A stretch of DNA of 64,000 nucleotides from a virus (taxonomy: Duplodnaviria; Caudoviricetes). Under the pieces are notes generated by a model, which saw nothing but the letters and a program-made list of their open reading frames with translations, had not been told where the DNA came from and did not search any database. The DNA lies in the IMG/VR virus record IMGVR_UViG_2898902220_000006, positions 1 through 64,000 of that record. One strand, given 5' to 3'. Below, piece after piece: positions 24,146 through 43,247 of the stretch. Position numbers and translations under genes: made by a program. Numbering within the stretch: the stretch's first letter is position 1; every line of letters starts with the position of its first letter.

Positions 24146-24268
24146 TTACCAACCTTCACCTACGCTTTTTGAAGAAGCTGTTGTTTCCAATTCCTTAACC
24201 TCAAAATTCGTTTCTGTAAAGCCGTACAAGGAAAGAATCGCTAGTAAGAAAATTATTCCTCGCTTCAT
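24146..24268 (-). CDS. 40-aa secreted propeptide, RRNPP-type signalling peptide candidate (not in ORF track)
   Basis: RBS AGAAAGGGACGGTG; MKRGIIFLLAILSLYGFTETNFEVKELETTASSKSVGEGW; own terminator. Confidence 0.8.
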   Translation of the reverse strand: MKRGIIFLLAILSLYGFTETNFEVKELETTASSKSVGEGW

Positions 24269-25550
24269 GTAAATCACCGTCCCTTTCTGTCATGACATCG
24301 ACAAATTTGTCTTTTTGTTCTGGTGTTGCAAGATAATCATATTCATAATACTTCAAAATAATGCTACGGACTCTTTCTACATTTTTAAACATGATAGCTA
24401 GGTCTAGAGCTTCAAAGATGTATTCAAACCCTTTATTGCTATCCTCAATTATAAAATAATATGAGGCTAATGCTTGATAAAGTTTTAGCTTATGTCTTTT
24501 GGTAGGAATGCTTGTTTGACAAGCAATTTTTTTGATTTGTTCTTCAAAGGTACAGATCAGTTTTTGAATGCTTTCTATATCTTTATTCTGTAAATATGTT
24601 TCAACAGCAACTGGCAATAACATAAATATTTCAACATCAGTAGCTAAACTAGCAAAGTTGTCAATGTATTCGACATGGCCCATTTCTATTGAAAATAATA
24701 ATTCGTTTAATTTTGAAATTTGCTGATAGCCTTCATAGTTAGCATATTCTTTAGTTATAAGCAATGCTTTATTATAATCTTTCATTTCTCGATAACTAAA
24801 GGATTCATATAGTAAGGCTTCCGCTATGAATTTGTTATCGTTTAATGTGATAGCCAATTCCTTCAATTCTGCTGCATACTTTAATAATTCCCCCCATTTT
24901 TCTACGGCATTATAAAAAGTTAATATTTTATAATACGCTTCTAGTTTATATTCTTCTGGAAGTATAGGAAAGTATTCTAAAAATTGGTAAAGAGTTTGAT
25001 ACCCAGAGACAGTAAGGTCTATATCTCTAGCTATTACAAATCGTTTAAAATAAGAAATGGCTGCTCGTTCATTACGAGTTGTACTGTTCGCGGTCACGAT
25101 ATCATACAAGGGCAGACTGTAGTTTCTTTGATCGGATGAAAAAATATGCTCTGCCATCTTAAAGGTGTTATCAAGAAGCCTTCTTCTATCTGTATCATCT
25201 TTGATCAATTCTATGATCCTCTTTGTAATGTCATATCGTTCTACGTTGATACAACTTGTGAAAAAATCAGCAGTTTTAACAGGTGACAATTTTCCTGATT
25301 CGTTAAAGCATTCCCCAATAAAATACTCATAGAAGGTGTCTTTCGGTAATCCTAAAGCTTCTGTAATAGCGTCTAATTGAGGTAATGTCAATCCCCGTTT
25401 GTTGTTCATTATTTGACTCAAAGTAACTGAATCAATTCCGGTGGCGAGAATCAAATCTTTTTGTTTCCATTCTTTTTTATCAAGTGCATCTTGCAAATGC
25501 TGACGTAGTTCTATTTGTGCCTCTTGATAACTGTATTCCAAAGCTTGCAT
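24201..25550 (-). CDS. XRE-HTH plus TPR-like regulator (RRNPP-like receptor)
   Basis: N-terminal HTH (KQKDLILATGIDSVTLSQIMNNKR); helical TPR-like C-terminus (ALLYESFSY...YNKAL; LASYY...KGFEYIFEALDLA). Confidence 0.8.
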   Translation of the reverse strand: MQALEYSYQEAQIELRQHLQDALDKKEWKQKDLILATGIDSVTLSQIMNNKRGLTLPQLDAITEALGLPKDTFYEYFIGECFNESGKLSPVKTADFFTSCINVERYDITKRIIELIKDDTDRRRLLDNTFKMAEHIFSSDQRNYSLPLYDIVTANSTTRNERAAISYFKRFVIARDIDLTVSGYQTLYQFLEYFPILPEEYKLEAYYKILTFYNAVEKWGELLKYAAELKELAITLNDNKFIAEALLYESFSYREMKDYNKALLITKEYANYEGYQQISKLNELLFSIEMGHVEYIDNFASLATDVEIFMLLPVAVETYLQNKDIESIQKLICTFEEQIKKIACQTSIPTKRHKLKLYQALASYYFIIEDSNKGFEYIFEALDLAIMFKNVERVRSIILKYYEYDYLATPEQKDKFVDVMTERDGDLHEARNNFLTSDSFLVRLYRNEF

Positions 25551-36485: not shown

Positions 36486-37541
36486 GTGTATGAGATAATA
36501 ACGGATGAGCTTATAATTGCTCATACAAACGAAACGGAATACAAAACCTTTATCGGAAATAAAAAGAATGAAGCATTACAGTCTAGAATGATTGTCATGC
36601 CAGTTCCTTACAATCTGCGGGTAGCAGAAGAAGAAAAGATTTATGATAAATTAATTAAGCAATCTGATTTAGGCCATGTTCATATTGCTCCACATGCGCT
36701 ATATACGGCGGCCATTTTTTCTATTTTAACCCGTTTAAAAGAGTCCAAGAAACAAGGCGCTGATCTATTAAAGAAATTACGTTTGTATAATGGTGAATCG
36801 GTTGAAGGCTTCAAAGGCTCTGACATCGAGGAATTACGTAATGAGCATGTGGATGAGGGAATGTCTGGAATTGATCCTCGTTATGTCATAAACCGGATTT
36901 CCAGTGCACTCATTCGTCGTGATACTGAGTCTATTAATGCCTTGGATATTTTGCGGGCATTAAAAGAAGGGCTCGATCAGCATGCTTCCATTAGCAAGGA
37001 ACAGCGAGAGCGTTACTTAAATTTCATCTCTATCGCACGTAAAGAGTACGATGAGATTGCGAAAAAAGAAGTTCAGAAGGCTTTTGTGTACAGCTATGAG
37101 GAATCAGCTAAAACCATGATGGATAATTATCTGGATAATGTTGAGGCGTATTGCAACTCTAACCGCTTACGTGATCCAGTAACAGGTGAAGAATTGGAAC
37201 CAGATGAACGTCTCATGCGGTCTATTGAAGAGCAGATTGGTATTTCCGAAAATGCCAAACGTGCATTCCGTGAAGAGATTCTTATTCGAATATCAGCTTA
37301 TGCGCGTAAAGGTAAACGTTTTGACTACAACACGCATGATCGTCTGCGGGAAGCGATTGAGAAAAAATTATTTGCAGATTTAAAAGATGTGGTTAAAATA
37401 ACAACCTCCACGAAAACACCAGATGAGCATCAATTGAAGAAAGTGAATGAAGTGACACGTCGTTTGGTTGAAGAACACGGATATACGCCAATTTCAGCAA
37501 ATGAACTGCTGCGTTATGTGGGTAGTTTGCTGAATCGATAG
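36486..37541 (+). pseudogene. prkA: 3' half of PrkA/YeaG-family ATPase/Ser kinase, split by prophage A
   Basis: DELIIAHTNETEY...NEALQSRMIVMPVPYNL...GMSGIDPRYV...VGSLLNR; N-terminal Walker A half absent. Confidence 0.92.
36487..36527. other. Candidate att junction of prophage A within prkA
   Basis: TGTATGAG/CTCATACA 8-bp inverted repeat centred near 36507, inner ATGAGC-N8-GCTCAT; PrkA similarity begins at GAT GAG (D-E-L-I). Confidence 0.6.
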
Positions 37542-37549
37542 GAGGGGGA

Positions 37550-38614
37550 ATGATGAACGACTCCTCGTTTATCGTCTCCAAAGAAGACTGGTCTCTGCAT
37601 CGCAAAGGTCATCAGGACCAGAGCAGACATCAGGAAAAGGTAAAAGAGGCGATCAAGAAAAACCTGTCTGATTTAGTAAGTGAAGAAAACATCATTATGT
37701 CTAATGGGCGAGAAATTATTAAAATACCAATCAGATCGCTGGATGAGTATCGCTTCCGTTACAATTTTAATAAAGGCCAGCATACAGGCCAAGGTCAAGG
37801 GAATTCCAAGATAGGAGATGTGGTAGCTAAAGACGGTGAACCGGCTGATGCTACTGCGGGCCAAGGTCAAGGAGCTGGCGATCAACCTGGTAACGATTAT
37901 TATGAAGCGGAGATTACAGTAGAAGAGTTGCAGGAAATGCTGTTTGCTGAGTTGGAGTTGCCTAATCTCCAAACGAAAGACGAACAGAAAATTACCATAG
38001 AAGATATTCAGTTTAATGATGTTCGGAAAAAAGGTTTAATGGGTAACATTGATAAAAAGCGTACCTTGATGTCTGCAATTCGCCGAAATGCACTAGCTGG
38101 GTATGACGATCTGGAGCTAGGTATCTCTATGGATGACTTGCGATTTAAAACATGGGAAGAGATTGTGAAGCCACATTCCAATGCCGTAATTTTGGCAATG
38201 ATGGATACGAGTGGATCTATGGGAGTTTTTGAAAAATACGTAGCCCGCAGCTTTTTCTTTTGGATGCTTCGCTTTTTGCGTACCAAGTATGAAAAGGTGG
38301 AGATCGCCTTCATCGCGCATCATACGGAAGCGAAGGAAGTGACGGAGGATGCGTTCTTTTCTAAAGGAGAGAGCGGCGGAACCATCTGCTCATCTGCCTA
38401 TCGAAAAGCTTTGGAAATTATCGACGCACGATATCCGGTAAGCCAATACAATATTTATCCGTTTCATTTTTCCGATGGGGATAACCTGACTTCGGATAAT
38501 GAACGGTGCGTGAAATTGGTGAAAGAATTGATGGAGAGGTCTAATATGTTTGGGTATGGTGAAGTGAATCAGTATAACTCACTGTTGTATACACAAAACG
38601 GTTCCACTATGTAG
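37550..38614 (+). pseudogene. yhbH: Sporulation protein YhbH (YeaH/DUF444), C-terminus replaced at prophage B junction
   Basis: [15 protein letters not shown]...MMDTSGSM...SGGTICSS...HFSDGDN...YGEVNQYN, then unrelated [11 protein letters not shown]. Confidence 0.92.
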
Positions 38615-38622
38615 GGAACCGT
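38564..38622. other. Candidate att junction of prophage B plus adjacent hairpin
   Basis: YhbH similarity ends at CAGTATAAC (38570-38578); ACGGTTCC/GGAACCGT hairpin at 38598-38622 spans the recombinase stop. Confidence 0.6.
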
Positions 38623-40181
38623 AAGATAATTTCAATTTCAAATTGCTCTGGTTTCTTCCACTCTTTCTTGCGAATATAGATTACCTTCTCAATAATGGTT
38701 TTGAGGAGGTTATTTTTTTGCTCTGGATCATCTAAGGATTTGTAAGCTTGAATAACCTTGTGAATTTTAGGGATAACCTGAGCTTGCATTTTAAGTCGGC
38801 TTTTCAATTGATTGATTTCGTTCTGAGACTTTTCTATTTCTGCCTCAAGTTGTTTTATCTTATCAGAGATGGTTTTATGTCGTTGTAAGAATAACTCTTC
38901 TGTATAAATTTTTCTTTCTAACATTTCGAATGTTGTTTCTCTCATACTGTGTTGCTCTTTCAATTCGGTAGTAGCTTTTTGAATATAATTAGTTAGTGCT
39001 GACATACGTTCTTCATTCTTATCTTTTCGTTTATTACGACTACTCAGTTCTGTTTGTGTCATTTCTTTTTGTTCCACTAACTCTTCTAAGCCAGCTATGA
39101 TTTTTTCTTCAACCAAGTAAGTTACAATACCTTTCTGTATTGTCTTACATGCAACATTGGTACATCTTATTTGGGGATTAGGTCTTTCAGGATTAACAAG
39201 CTGTGCTAATGTGCGCCCGCATACTCCACATCTTGCGATACCAGCAAGAGGATTAGATACAGATGAGCCTTCTTTTCTAGAGACTCGAAAACGCCCTGTG
39301 TGAGCTTCATTAGCTTTAATAAATAATTCCTGACTAACTATTGGTTCATGCGCATTGTCATGTCTAGTCCATAATTCTGGGGGGAGTCTTTTAGTGACTC
39401 TTTTTCCGTTACGTTTCGTATGTTTCTTCCTGCCCCATACAATGTGACCGATATAGACTTCATTTTTAACTAAATAACTTATGGTAGAGTGTTCCCAGAT
39501 ATCTCTTTTCGAGGGAGCCTTATACCCTGCCTGCATAAGATACTCTATGACTTTAAAACGTCCATATCCTTCAGCCAGTAGCTCGAAGATTTTTTTAACA
39601 ACTGGAGCTTCTTCGGGATGAGGATAGAGCTTTAGGTTTTCGTCTCTTAAATATCCATAAGGGGGGGTTTTAGCGATATGTCGACCATCTTTTACTGCAC
39701 GCCGCCGACCACCTTGCAAACGCTTATTAATCTGTTTTAACTCTTCACGAGCGATGATAGACTTCACACCAAACAATAGTTCTGCACCTTCGGCGTTGCA
39801 GTCGATCACTTCTGAGGGGGTAATAATCAGTGTTTCAGAATATTTAAAAGCTCTGAATATCGTTCCTGCATCGATCATATCTCCACGCCCAAGACGATCT
39901 AAGTCCATCACTATTACGCCATCGCATTCTCCATCTTCAACGTTACGCAGCATCTCTTGTGCTTCTGGTCTTTCCGATAGAAACTCACCTGATACAATTT
40001 CCTCAAAGATTTTTATAACATTATGCTGCTCTCTTCGTACAAGCTCCATTAGCTCACGTTTGTGCTTATCAAGAGTATCGAAGGGGATGCCAGTTTCAAG
40101 GGCCTTTTTTTCTTCTTCGATGTCTTTTCGGCTTTTGCGTAGATGGATAATCACGTCAAGGTTTGTAGGTCTACTCATCAA
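38607..40181 (-). CDS. Large serine recombinase (integrase); ATG at 40178
   Basis: IIHLRKSR catalytic Ser, SGE...[26 protein letters not shown] zinc ribbon, coiled coil. Confidence 0.96.
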
Positions 40182-40273: not shown

Positions 40274-40353
40274 AACCAAGTACAATAGAATCGGCTCTCT
40301 CAATGGCGATCCTGGCTCATCCCCATGTCACAAATAGCAAGGGGGTGACGCTC

Positions 40354-40446
40354 ATGTCCGTATATGAAGCTCTTATGGTAATGTTTGCTTTCGGAACATT
40401 TATCATTGCTTTAATTGGACTATTTGTCAAAATGACAAAAAAGTAA
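40354..40446 (+). CDS. 30-aa holin-like type I toxin (not in ORF track)
   Basis: RBS AAGGGGGTGA; MSVYEALMVMFAFGTFIIALIGLFVKMTKK, a single TM helix with basic tail. Confidence 0.85.
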   Translation: MSVYEALMVMFAFGTFIIALIGLFVKMTKK

Positions 40447-40560
40447 GATCGCCATTGAGCCGTGGAAAGCTAGACGATCTTACTCCGTGATTTGAGCCAA
40501 TCCCATTGAGGGATGGTCTATTGTACAAACCGTAGGTGCTCTAACACCTGCGGTCTTTTT
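40447..40560 (-). ncRNA. Putative antisense antitoxin RNA overlapping the toxin 3' UTR
   Basis: Long structured 3' UTR; possible minus-strand TATAAT near 40592-40597; ends not determinable. Confidence 0.4.
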
Positions 40561-40561
40561 T
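40529..40561 (+). terminator. Toxin mRNA terminator
   Basis: ACCGTAGGTG-ctctaa-CACCTGCGGT followed by T run. Confidence 0.8.
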
Positions 40562-40767
40562 ATTATATGCGCTTGTACTTCTATAATACCATATTATAGG
40601 CATTCTGAAACAATATAAATGATTAGAGGAGGTAAAAAATTAATGTTTTATGTGTAGAAAGAAAAGAGAATGAAGAGTAAAATGTTAATGAAGTGAAAAA
40701 AAGATACTGAACGAAAGGAGAAAAGTTATAAGAGAGATTTTACTACTGATAGATTGAGGTAATATGA

Positions 40768-41436
40768 ATGGACACTTTCATGTACATAATTTTAGGTAGC
40801 ATCGATATTCTGGCGATATTAGTCCTGGCGTTCAAGATATTTCGCTTCCCTCTGGCGTGGAAAAAAGAGTTTTTAATCATATCAATCACAGCATCATTAA
40901 TATCATACTTGAATAGGGTAATACTTGATATTCCAAATGTTGACAGTTGGTTGCAATATTCGATAATTATTTTGTTTTTCAGATATATGTTAAAGGTGAA
41001 GTTATTTGACAGTATAGTAGTAGCAACTGTAGGATATTTAGGCTTTAACATCGTACAATACAGTACATACGTAGTTATGCTCTGGACAGGGATAGTATCG
41101 TTTGCTGATGGACAAGCACTAACAAACTTGGGTACTTACCTAATACAGTTAACAACTCATCTATTTATGTTTGGTGTAGCCTGGTTAATCTACAGATACA
41201 ATCATGGATTTTCATTTATTATGGTCCCGCCACATGATGTCCATATAAAGATTAAAATGACACCTTTAAAATATCTAATAATGACAATGGTGTTTCTATC
41301 ATCAACAACAATTTTAGTTGTAACAAATTGGATGCTTGCATTCAATGGAAACCCAACTTGGTTAGTGCCTGTTTTCATAATCTATTTAATTATCCTTATC
41401 AAGTTATTGGAGAAAAAGGAAATGACCAATGATTGA
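40768..41436 (+). CDS. Polytopic membrane protein resembling an AgrC-type sensor domain without a kinase
   Basis: About 7 hydrophobic segments, 222 aa, stop overlaps agrB start; no H-box or HATPase. Confidence 0.75.
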   Translation: MDTFMYIILGSIDILAILVLAFKIFRFPLAWKKEFLIISITASLISYLNRVILDIPNVDSWLQYSIIILFFRYMLKVKLFDSIVVATVGYLGFNIVQYSTYVVMLWTGIVSFADGQALTNLGTYLIQLTTHLFMFGVAWLIYRYNHGFSFIMVPPHDVHIKIKMTPLKYLIMTMVFLSSTTILVVTNWMLAFNGNPTWLVPVFIIYLIILIKLLEKKEMTND

Positions 41437-41941
41437 AAAACTATCCTATTCTCTTGCGGTTAAGATTCACGATGCCAATCCCGATAAAAAAGAGAGTGTG
41501 GATGTCTTGTCTTATTCATTGTCCATTACCCTTAATTATTTACTAGTATTATTTTTTTCTTTATTGATCGGTTACTTAACAAATGAATTTGTTGACACAA
41601 TTATTTCAATGGTGAGTTTTATTGCTCTACGTATTTTTTCAAAGGGGTATCATGCAAAATCATTAACTACATGCTTTATTTTGACAACAGCGATCATAGC
41701 ATTGATTCCTCATGTTCCAATGCAAGATTATCTGAGTGTTACTAATATAGTAAACGTTTTTCTGGTGCTATTTCTCGCGCCAAATGGTAGATTCGAGGAA
41801 GAAGTAATCCCTCAAAAAAGAGTTTATTTACTAAAAGGAATTTCATTGATTATAGTCCTATCCAACTTTATTATCTCGTCGCATATTGTGGCTCTATCTT
41901 TTTTTGCGCAATCATTATTATTACTACCTAAAAGGAGGTGA
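41429..41941 (+). CDS. agrB: AgrB-family peptide-processing membrane protein
   Basis: FIALRIFSKGYHAKSLTTC (R..GG.H...C-type motif), LAPN. Confidence 0.88.
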   Translation: MIEKLSYSLAVKIHDANPDKKESVDVLSYSLSITLNYLLVLFFSLLIGYLTNEFVDTIISMVSFIALRIFSKGYHAKSLTTCFILTTAIIALIPHVPMQDYLSVTNIVNVFLVLFLAPNGRFEEEVIPQKRVYLLKGISLIIVLSNFIISSHIVALSFFAQSLLLLPKRR

Positions 41942-41946
41942 GGACA

Positions 41947-42066
41947 ATGAATAAACAGTTCGCGAAAACAATTTCAAAGGGATTAGGTACTTTGGGTAAG
42001 GTTTATACAAAGCTTGCCAAAGTTACAATCGGTAGCCCGGTTGTACCTAAAGAATTAAGAAAGTAA
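41947..42066 (+). CDS. agrD: AgrD-like 39-aa propeptide (not in ORF track)
   Basis: RBS AAGGAGGTGAGG; MNKQFAKTISKGLGTLGKVYTKLAKVTIGSPVVPKELRK; amphipathic leader and PxxPKEL tail. Confidence 0.8.
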   Translation: MNKQFAKTISKGLGTLGKVYTKLAKVTIGSPVVPKELRK

Positions 42067-42076
42067 GAGTAGAGCT

Positions 42077-42445
42077 ATGGGGAATTCGCCAAAGTTTTTT
42101 GGAATAACGCCGTCGGGGAATAGAAGCGATAGATCAGCGTATGTAGAACTCTCAATAGATGACTTTAATTTCGTTAATCGGTATAACGATACAACCATTG
42201 CATACAATACGAATAAAGGGTTATTCTTACCTGTGAACTCGTTGGAAGGTATGTTCATTTGTCTTGAAAAATACGGATTCACAAACTTAGACTCAACGAA
42301 TGTCACAAATCTTAAAAATATAGAAAGTATAGATGTTAGTCCATATGGGATCGGCGTCCACTTTCCAAACGGAATGCATACAACTGCATCTCGGATCAAG
42401 TATAAACAATTTTTAAAAGACTTACCGAAAAGGCCACCTAAATAA
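42077..42445 (+). CDS. Stand-alone LytTR DNA-binding domain protein
   Basis: GFTNLDSTNVTNLKNIESI...VHFPNG...ASRIKYK; no receiver domain. Confidence 0.82.
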   Translation: MGNSPKFFGITPSGNRSDRSAYVELSIDDFNFVNRYNDTTIAYNTNKGLFLPVNSLEGMFICLEKYGFTNLDSTNVTNLKNIESIDVSPYGIGVHFPNGMHTTASRIKYKQFLKDLPKRPPK

Positions 42446-42718
42446 GGTGGTTTTTTTGTGTCTTTTATTCAATGTTTTAAGTGGGGTATTATACATCAGG
42501 ATAATGCAAAAGTAAAGTTAAATTGACCTAGGGGTCTATTGACACTTAACAATCGCAAGATTCGACAAAAAACTAACTTTTTAGATGGTACATTTTTTAA
42601 AGAAATAAAAATTCATTCATTATCACTTTAAATAAATTAAAATTACGAATCATTACTCAGCGTTCTATCTGTAAGAGCAAGAATGTAGCGATTTTATTTT
42701 CCGCTGGAGGTGCGTGTT

Positions 42719-42850: not shown

Positions 42851-42865
42851 AAAGGATGGCTTTCT
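42827..42865. terminator. Bidirectional terminator between 43-aa ORF and repressor
   Basis: AAAGCCATCCTTT...AAAGGATGGCTTT. Confidence 0.7.
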
Positions 42866-43247
42866 AATTATCTATCTCTGATTTAAAGGCTTCTAGAAGC
42901 TCTTTTACTAAATGCTTTTTGTTTGGAGGTAGGTTACGGATTAGATTGATAATATTTTTGTCTTCTTCAGAAAGAGTCGGGTCATTAATGGTAGAGATAA
43001 ATGGATCAGTTATATCTGTACTGCATTTTTCATTAGTTCTTCCTAATAAGTAGTCAACAGAAACATTAAAGAAATCAGCTATTTTTTCTAATCGTTCATG
43101 CCTTGGCAAACTTTGATCTGATGATTCTAATCTTCTGATTGTAGACTCGGGTATGTCTAAAGCTCTAGCTAATTCTTCTTGTGTTATCATTTTTTCTGCT
43201 CTTAATTCTTTTAAACGTTTTTTAAAAATCATAGATATCACGCTCAT
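42864..43247 (-). CDS. Prophage B immunity repressor, XRE family
   Basis: FKKRLKELRAEKMITQEELARAL...FFNVSVDYLLGRT. Confidence 0.9.
   Translation of the reverse strand: MSVISMIFKKRLKELRAEKMITQEELARALDIPESTIRRLESSDQSLPRHERLEKIADFFNVSVDYLLGRTNEKCSTDITDPFISTINDPTLSEEDKNIINLIRNLPPNKKHLVKELLEAFKSEIDN

Follow-up and report, generated by a model that had tools for sequence, protein, structure and literature searches.

Can an agr-type system relay a peptide signal when both its kinase and its receiver domain are missing? The question is raised by a four-gene cassette at positions 40768-42445 of a stretch of provirus DNA (64,000 nucleotides, hereafter the window), the first 64 kb of the 84.9 kb IMG/VR record IMGVR_UViG_2898902220_000006. 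The host is Brevibacillus laterosporus, as a PrkA fragment encoded at 36486-37541 is 97% identical to the PrkA of this species. The agr locus is a textbook two-component peptide quorum-sensing system. Here we report that the cassette is a conserved and real agr-derived module devoid of kinase and receiver, and one more instance of a recurring variant that connects agr with the LytTR regulatory systems (LRS) and is common in Brevibacillus and Paenibacillus. That it represents the phage-borne copy of a widespread kinase-less agr variant, in which a membrane protein with seven transmembrane helices (7TM protein) gates a LytTR protein by direct contact, we regard as an even bet. Of the interpretation offered in an earlier note on this DNA, the architecture and the homologies hold, and the mechanism and the role in lysogeny are kept in the conditional below.

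The four open reading frames (ORFs) of the cassette lie on the plus strand, where the earlier note had placed them. They encode the 7TM protein of 222 amino acids (aa; 40768..41436), an AgrB-family membrane peptidase of 170 aa (41429..41941), an AgrD-like propeptide of 39 aa (41947..42066) and a stand-alone LytTR protein of 122 aa (42077..42445). The intergenic gaps are, in this order, -8, +5 and +10 nt, the stop of the 7TM gene overlapping the start of the AgrB gene by 8 nt. A promoter and leader on the same strand (40555..40767) precede the operon, and a hairpin resembling an intrinsic terminator closes it (42426-42458, plus strand). Together with a second terminator-like hairpin at 40529-40554, likewise found by the hairpin search, it brackets the four-gene unit.

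The first protein of the operon was modelled with AlphaFold2 from a 68-sequence alignment as a seven-helix bundle (pLDDT 95.9). Averaged over the 68 sequences, lysine plus arginine counts are high in loops 1, 3 and 5 and at the C-terminus (1.35, 1.34, 2.71 and 2.50, respectively) and low at the N-terminus and in loops 2, 4 and 6 (0.06-0.29), hence the predicted topology is N-out, C-in, which is the orientation of the AgrC sensor as well. The top conserved motif, G147 and P154-P155-H156, is specific to the family and falls in the cytoplasmic loop between helices 5 and 6. Neither the protein nor its 68 relatives belong to a Pfam or NCBIfam family, and the 30 nearest protein-atlas clusters are all annotated as hypothetical proteins with no Pfam family. 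A PDB sequence-profile search with the family gave no match, Foldseek of the model against the PDB gave none at E <= 0.001 and the best hits of a wide VIA-align search (Z 6.9) were unrelated helical proteins; no solved relative of the model was found, and these fold searches have no bearing on the novelty of the fold. A CPBP/MroQ-like protease was considered as the identity of this protein and rejected, a Pfam match and conserved catalytic residues being absent.

An exhaustive phmmer search of 1.84 billion representatives collected relatives of the 7TM protein in 143 clusters at 50% identity. Complete members measure ~203-248 aa, 15 are shorter fragments, two have 291 and 293 aa, and a relative of kinase length was found in none of the clusters. 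The single protein used as query against genome contigs gave no match. The family profile produced weaker matches (E 1e-15 to 1e-7) in 401 Bacilli genomes, to the N-terminal ~215 residues of ORFs of 418-454 aa; in hmmsearch, profile positions ~4-216 fell on the N-terminal half of AgrC-type kinases and of related proteins encoded beside AgrB, of 406-454 aa. Long ORFs of this kind stand next to AgrB in the five loci with AgrB called (L125, L126, L127, L130 and L131), and at locus L129 a 191-aa ORF takes the AgrB position beside the long form. The L130 ORF (Brevibacillus sp. SYSU BS000544), beside AgrB, carries HATPase_c_5. We built a kinase profile from its 22 Brevibacillus relatives, all with HATPase_c and HATPase_c_5 and most with a SpoOB-type DHp, and compared it with the 68-sequence 7TM family by hhalign. 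The two profiles matched with 97.5% probability (E 4.9e-12) along 144 columns, which correspond to helices 1-5 and to residues 2-147 of the kinase. Because of this comparison and the profile match to the AgrB-adjacent L130 kinase, we identify the 7TM protein, by sequence profile, as a stand-alone homologue of the AgrC sensor module. A comparison of the membrane protein with the AgrC sensor, as suggested by the earlier note, was thus positive. The view that the protein ends where a kinase would begin is likewise borne out, since the profile matches the N-terminal portion of proteins of 406-465 aa and the protein itself ends after helix 7; the operon encodes no DHp/HATPase_c_5 kinase.

The long forms other than L130 (L125-L129 and L131, 406-450 aa) have a C-terminal half of ~200 aa in which no ATPase domain was detected even at E 5. 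In a pairwise alignment with the L130 kinase the position of the acceptor histidine is a serine in L125, and the other long forms look similar by eye; judged by their sequences, these proteins may be pseudokinases. At L126 and L128 a separate soluble HisKA/HATPase kinase of ~270 aa is encoded beside the long form.

The output end of the cassette is the LytTR protein. Its own match to PF04397 (E 0.0033, 18.1 bits) lies below the gathering cut-off of 22.6, so it is the family profile and the predicted fold that carry the assignment. Relatives were collected from the loci, a homologue search with the protein itself having returned five close relatives only. At the E limit of 0.01, 18 of the 23 relatives at the same position match PF04397 (best 1.6e-14), and the best PDB sequence for the family profile is the AgrA DNA-binding domain 3bs1, matched over the whole domain (E 3.6e-6). 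The AlphaFold2 model (pLDDT 88.8) found LytTR structures as all of its ten best Foldseek matches, among them 3d6w, 3bs1 and 4cbv, with probabilities of 0.99-1.00. Profile and model together assign the fourth protein to the LytTR DNA-binding domains, closest to that of AgrA. The domain occupies residues 23-114 of the 122 aa, which leaves no space for a receiver domain and agrees with what had been claimed for this protein. In RefSeq the gene is labelled 'peptidase' in three phages, namely Davies gp48 (L001 5255-5620), Abouo gp47 (L003 4812-5180) and Harrison gp41 (L004 4797-5153), and the paper on Harrison and Paisley names the product dipeptidyl aminopeptidase (PMC5056774). We reject the peptidase identity as a misannotation on account of the 3bs1 profile match, the PF04397 matches and the Foldseek result.

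The two genes between sensor and regulator encode the peptide-producing part. AgrB matches PF04647 with E 1.1e-19, and residues G73, H75 and C82 are invariant in all 39 distinct AgrB sequences from related cassettes. The seven-residue spacing of H75 and C82 is that of His77 and Cys84, the catalytic pair of Staphylococcus aureus AgrB. Since this His-Cys pair is invariant, AgrB looks active as judged by its sequence. For the peptide gene the ATG at 41947, with a GGAGGTG site 6 nt ahead of it, is the most likely start; a GTG at 41938 is a possible alternative. The product has an amphipathic N-terminus, the core K-V-T-I and the tail P-K-E-L-R-K, and in Abouo the annotation of the homologue gp46 reads cyclic lactone autoinducer peptide. 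Peptide genes extracted from all related loci gave 34 distinct sequences, which share the AgrD-type P-x-E-L recognition tail and were aligned on its proline. Counted from this proline, 14 of the 34 have Ser or Cys at -10, corresponding to the canonical five-residue ring, and one has Ser at -9. The remaining 19, including those of the window and of all five phages with a related cassette, have an invariant Lys at -9 and neither Ser nor Cys at -10. The window peptide contains no Cys and has Ala at the canonical nucleophile position, with the Lys one residue later. By atom count, a lactam between the Lys side-chain nitrogen and the carbonyl of residue i+3 is 16-membered, the size of the Cys(i)-(i+4) thiolactone, so a Lys-closed lactam ring is plausible for the Lys-type peptides. 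A linear product or a role of the Lys in leader cleavage are possible alternatives. If the ring is closed in this way, the Lys-type propeptides suggest a hydrolytically stable autoinducer.

The cassette is no isolated case. The expectation that similar cassettes exist in Brevibacillus phages proved right, the same four genes in the same order being present in Davies (gp45-48), Emery (gp54-57) and Abouo (gp44-47). The arrangement recurs in the Paenibacillus larvae phage Harrison (gp38-41), and Paisley gave a matching 7TM hit. The window cassette is 74-79% identical at the DNA level to those of Davies and Emery, and in the phages the cassette always sits in the integrase/regulator region, with differing integrase classes. 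Chromosomal cassettes occur as well (L006 and L009), and the B. laterosporus group has a copy between cotE/miaB and sugar-uptake genes. In all 36 loci AgrB lies directly downstream of the 7TM gene of ~220 aa, and in 24 of the 36 a LytTR-like protein of 110-134 aa follows AgrD, these 24 assignments being based on a crude HMM, the A3 alignment and the Pfam matches in 18/23. Of the species genomes covered, 24 of the 61 from Brevibacillaceae and 79 of the 136 from Paenibacillaceae encode members of the 7TM family, and a single genome may have as many as six copies. Between the window, Davies and Emery, the 7TM gene has a dN/dS of 0.08-0.14, AgrB one of 0.14-0.22 and the LytTR gene one of 0.04-0.12, which shows that all three are under purifying selection.

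Furthermore, the architecture of sensor and regulator is correlated. Short 7TM proteins mostly go with receiver-less LytTR proteins, whereas the three long forms with an adjacent regulator (L125, L129 and L131) go with REC-LytTR proteins of 240-245 aa; this correlation supports a coupling between the two proteins. At the chromosomal locus L101 (122-847, minus strand) the regulator is a tandem LytTR-LytTR protein of 242 aa, which fits LytTR factors that bind direct repeats as dimers.

At least five types can be told apart among the 7TM proteins of Brevibacillus, with 75-99% identity within a type and 26-51% between types. Type A comprises the proteins of the window, Davies (gp45), Emery (gp54), L091 and L096; type B comprises orphan copies in Davies (gp44) and Emery (gp53) and the upstream gene of L091; type C is Abouo gp44, type D the chromosomal copy and type E L097. 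Each type with its own AgrD has a distinct peptide core, KV(T/S)I, KFGL, KA(G/A)I or KWFV, and Davies and Abouo have identical upstream regions followed by different cassettes. This covariation of 7TM protein and peptide fits the co-diversification of a receptor-ligand pair and resembles the hypervariable specificity groups of staphylococcal agr. In Davies (gp44, L001 3205-3864), Emery (gp53, L002 3521-4186) and L091 (2234-2905) the orphan 7TM paralogue stands directly upstream of the complete cassette; these paralogues are 81-84% identical to each other, 32-35% to the cognate receptor and ~50% to that of Abouo. Some Paenibacillaceae genomes (G533, G448 and G445) contain tandem runs of three 7TM genes. 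Such orphan and tandem paralogues may be eavesdropping receptors.

The coordinates, gaps and flanking genes of the window confirm the description of four tightly coupled genes between integrase and repressor. The integrase on the left is a large serine recombinase with Resolvase and Recombinase domains (38607-40181, minus strand); on the right follow an XRE repressor (42864-43247, minus strand) and, close to it, a divergent Cro-like gene. Between integrase and cassette, and absent from the earlier note, lies a gene for a 47-aa Hol-Tox family peptide (40303-40446, PF16935 E 2e-13) with its own terminator, the hairpin at 40529-40554. This element is kept in many Brevibacillus phages (Jimmer, Osiris and Powder). 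Further to the left, prkA at 36486-37541 consists of the C-terminal 351 codons only, and yhbH (37550-38614) is truncated, its end, made up of foreign residues, running over the stop of the serine recombinase gene. The 3' end of yhbH is hence where the prophage that bears the cassette has inserted. Upstream, about positions 1-26000 of the window belong to a second prophage, with a 449-aa ORF (24201-25550, minus strand) in its low-GC region.

How such a module could signal may be outlined as follows. AgrB would process the AgrD-like propeptide at its C-terminal P-x-E-L tail, and a small, probably macrocyclic peptide would be released, its ring in the Lys subfamily possibly closed through the invariant Lys and not through Cys or Ser. 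The 7TM protein, an AgrC sensor module that lacks the DHp and ATPase domains, would serve as the receptor for the released peptide. With kinase and receiver both missing, it would control the receiver-less LytTR protein by direct contact and not by phosphotransfer, in analogy to the membrane inhibitors of LytTR regulatory systems. The conserved cytoplasmic loop and the C-terminal tail are the likely contact surface, and the LytTR protein, freed or captured, would alter transcription of its targets. Lying in the lysogeny module, the cassette probably provides lysogens with a private density or kin signal. In this outline the role of the 7TM protein as receptor, its direct coupling to the LytTR protein, the chemistry of the ring and any link to lysogeny are inferred from the features described above. 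A more far-reaching version makes the quorum-sensing circuit complete and free of phosphorylation, with a novel kind of autoinducer chemistry: the AgrB thioester would be resolved by the Lys amine to give a Lys(i)-C-terminus(i+3) lactam, read by a kinase-less sensor that sequesters or releases the bare LytTR protein, and the phages would carry private pherotypes (in Davies and Emery with an additional orphan receptor) that sense lysogen density or kin. Taken as a whole, this version appears rather unlikely to us.

Several observations weigh against the proposed direct gating and its link to lysogeny. The direct 7TM-LytTR contact is itself a proposal by analogy, and the hhalign similarity to the kinases is limited to helices 1-5, beyond which the protein, with its conserved loop, is specific to the family. 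The canonical Cys/Ser ring nucleophile is absent from the window peptide. Furthermore, the regulator that goes with the short 7TM protein is of the REC-LytTR type in L111 and L112, so that short 7TM and bare LytTR proteins need not occur together, and L115-L119 have no LytTR gene within the ~950 nt of downstream flank. The gene order also differs from that of the described LRS, with the membrane protein first and agrBD between the 7TM and LytTR genes. The sole tie of the cassette output to lysogeny is position. The earlier note had suggested that the LytTR factor controls lysogeny, yet LytTR-type direct repeats were found neither upstream of the operon nor in the repressor/cro region: 9-bp direct repeats as in agr and LRS promoters (>= 8/9 identity, 20-22-bp period) are absent from 40447-40770 and from the repressor/cro intergenic regions. 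The same regions contain no paired LytTR half-sites according to a consensus pattern, a pattern search that degenerate sites may escape. Among 34 related upstream regions, 30 are likewise without 9-bp direct repeats.

The leader does contain conserved sequence. Besides a TATAAT at 40582-40587, the alignment of the upstream regions of five Brevibacillus cassettes revealed an invariant 13-nt block, GTAAAATGTTAAT (40677-40689), of which a copy with 2 mismatches lies 45 bp upstream at 40632-40644. These two copies of the GTAAAA-rich 13-mer represent an AT-rich pattern that occurs at chance level (7 matches against 4.85 expected). The ATGTTAA core of the block forms a repeat with 22-bp spacing upstream of the REC-LytTR locus L112. 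Judged by its sequence, the block could be a LytTR half-site or an RNA element.

Among the alternatives to direct gating, the 7TM protein could be a peptide receptor that signals through another partner, such as a host kinase acting in trans or regulated proteolysis, the LytTR protein being controlled by its expression level only. The soluble kinases encoded beside the long forms of L126 and L128 suit this explanation, as do the REC-LytTR regulators of L111 and L112 and the missing LytTR genes of L115-L119. However, no kinase gene is present in or next to the cassette in the window, the five phages, L006, L009 or L133, and the fact that kinase and receiver are both absent from most loci points to a phosphate-free route. 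We consider signalling through another partner improbable. Somewhat less probable still is that the 7TM protein assists AgrB in maturation, export or producer immunity, in which case the cassette would be a peptide-production moron with a constitutive LytTR protein. The 7TM and AgrB genes are always adjacent and overlap by 8 nt in the window, the 7TM protein diverges along with AgrB and AgrD, and maturation of the S. aureus autoinducing peptide reportedly needs a second membrane protease, MroQ. Homology to the sensor module of AgrC-type kinases speaks against such a helper, as does the lack of a CPBP/Abi Pfam match and of a conserved acidic or His catalytic set; moreover, 7TM paralogues that are orphans or lie in tandem and lack their own AgrB suit receptors better than processing factors.

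The cassette might also act in interference, the phage peptide, a decoy 7TM protein or the bare LytTR protein cross-inhibiting the chromosomal kinase-less cassette of the host. In the form put forward earlier, a device that jams the host agr, the idea is not supported: an agr of the kinase type is missing from the B. laterosporus reference genome, whose AgrB is found only inside kinase-less cassettes, the chromosomal one included, so that jamming could only mean cross-talk with another kinase-less cassette. A candidate target exists, as the chromosomal cassette of the B. laterosporus group is of another type with a 36% identical 7TM protein, and cross-inhibition between pherotypes is established in staphylococcal agr. 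The phage cassette, with its own producer, receptor and regulator, is nevertheless more complete than interference needs and evidence of shared DNA targets is lacking, which makes this explanation quite unlikely. Finally, a decaying remnant of canonical agrBDCA, truncated to the loss of kinase and receiver, can be practically dismissed, for although long-form relatives apparently lack the acceptor His and ATPase motifs, the frameshifted kinase remnants that had been named beforehand as a sign of decay have no counterpart among the relatives, whose 143 clusters are of ~220 aa or shorter (two of ~290) and never of kinase length, while the genes are under purifying selection (dN/dS 0.04-0.22) without internal stops, the family is widely distributed in the genomes of two bacterial families and the cassette is retained in five sequenced phages.

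Direct gating of the LytTR protein, to return to the preferred explanation, would place the cassette between systems that have so far been described separately. With canonical agr (agrBDCA of S. aureus; also Listeria, Clostridium and lamBDCA of Lactiplantibacillus) it shares the AgrB His/Cys pair, the amphipathic N-terminus and P-x-E-L tail of AgrD, a multi-helix sensor homologous to the AgrC N-terminus and a LytTR output closest to AgrA. It differs in that the DHp, ATPase and receiver domains, and hence phosphotransfer, are missing, in the position of the sensor gene, which opens the operon and is coupled to agrB, in the lack of a Cys or Ser at the ring position of the peptide and in that P2/P3-like direct repeats were not found. 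The LRS, in turn, pair a receiver-less LytTR factor with a membrane inhibitor, as in HdrRM and BrsRM of Streptococcus mutans (Zou et al. 2018, PMC6193735). In these systems, as in the cassette, the regulator is co-operonic with a polytopic membrane protein in a design independent of phosphorylation (PMC6193735). The described LRS, however, have neither agrBD nor a known peptide ligand, encode the regulator before the inhibitor and use membrane proteins (e.g. DUF2154) unrelated to the 7TM protein; their promoters contain, just ahead of the -35 element and serving autoregulation, 9-bp direct repeats spaced by 12 bp, which were not found at the window cassette.

Agr genes on a temperate phage are known from Clostridioides difficile phiCDHM1, whose agr3 encodes a full AgrC kinase and no regulator (PMC3901668), whereas the window cassette has neither kinase nor receiver but includes a LytTR protein. 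Hargreaves et al. in 2014 had already pointed out an HATPase-less agr cassette in Davies, Emery and Abouo, with the LytTR gene and a mechanism unmentioned and homology untested there (PMC3901668). Phage genome papers list 'accessory gene regulator B' in tables only, and our search for literature on kinase-less agr with LytTR proteins or on lactam AgrD products found nothing beyond Hargreaves et al. 2014. The statement of the earlier note that a functional description is not known therefore stands, although the cassette as such had been noticed. Arbitrium (AimP/AimR) and the other RRNPP peptide systems of temperate Bacillus phages are analogous in function only: the phage encodes a secreted peptide and the receptor for it in the lysogeny region. 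The proteins of arbitrium are unrelated, its peptide is linear and imported and its regulator is a cytoplasmic TPR protein, whereas a membrane receptor and an AgrB-processed peptide are expected for the window cassette.

If direct gating is true, the cassette would show how a membrane receptor can gate a transcription factor without a kinase. It would also connect agr with the LytTR regulatory systems, which are poorly understood, and provide the first candidate ligand for LRS. Moreover, its carriage near the lysogeny switch by phages of the bee pathogens B. laterosporus and P. larvae, with divergent pherotypes, makes it a candidate for a second class of phage peptide communication besides arbitrium.

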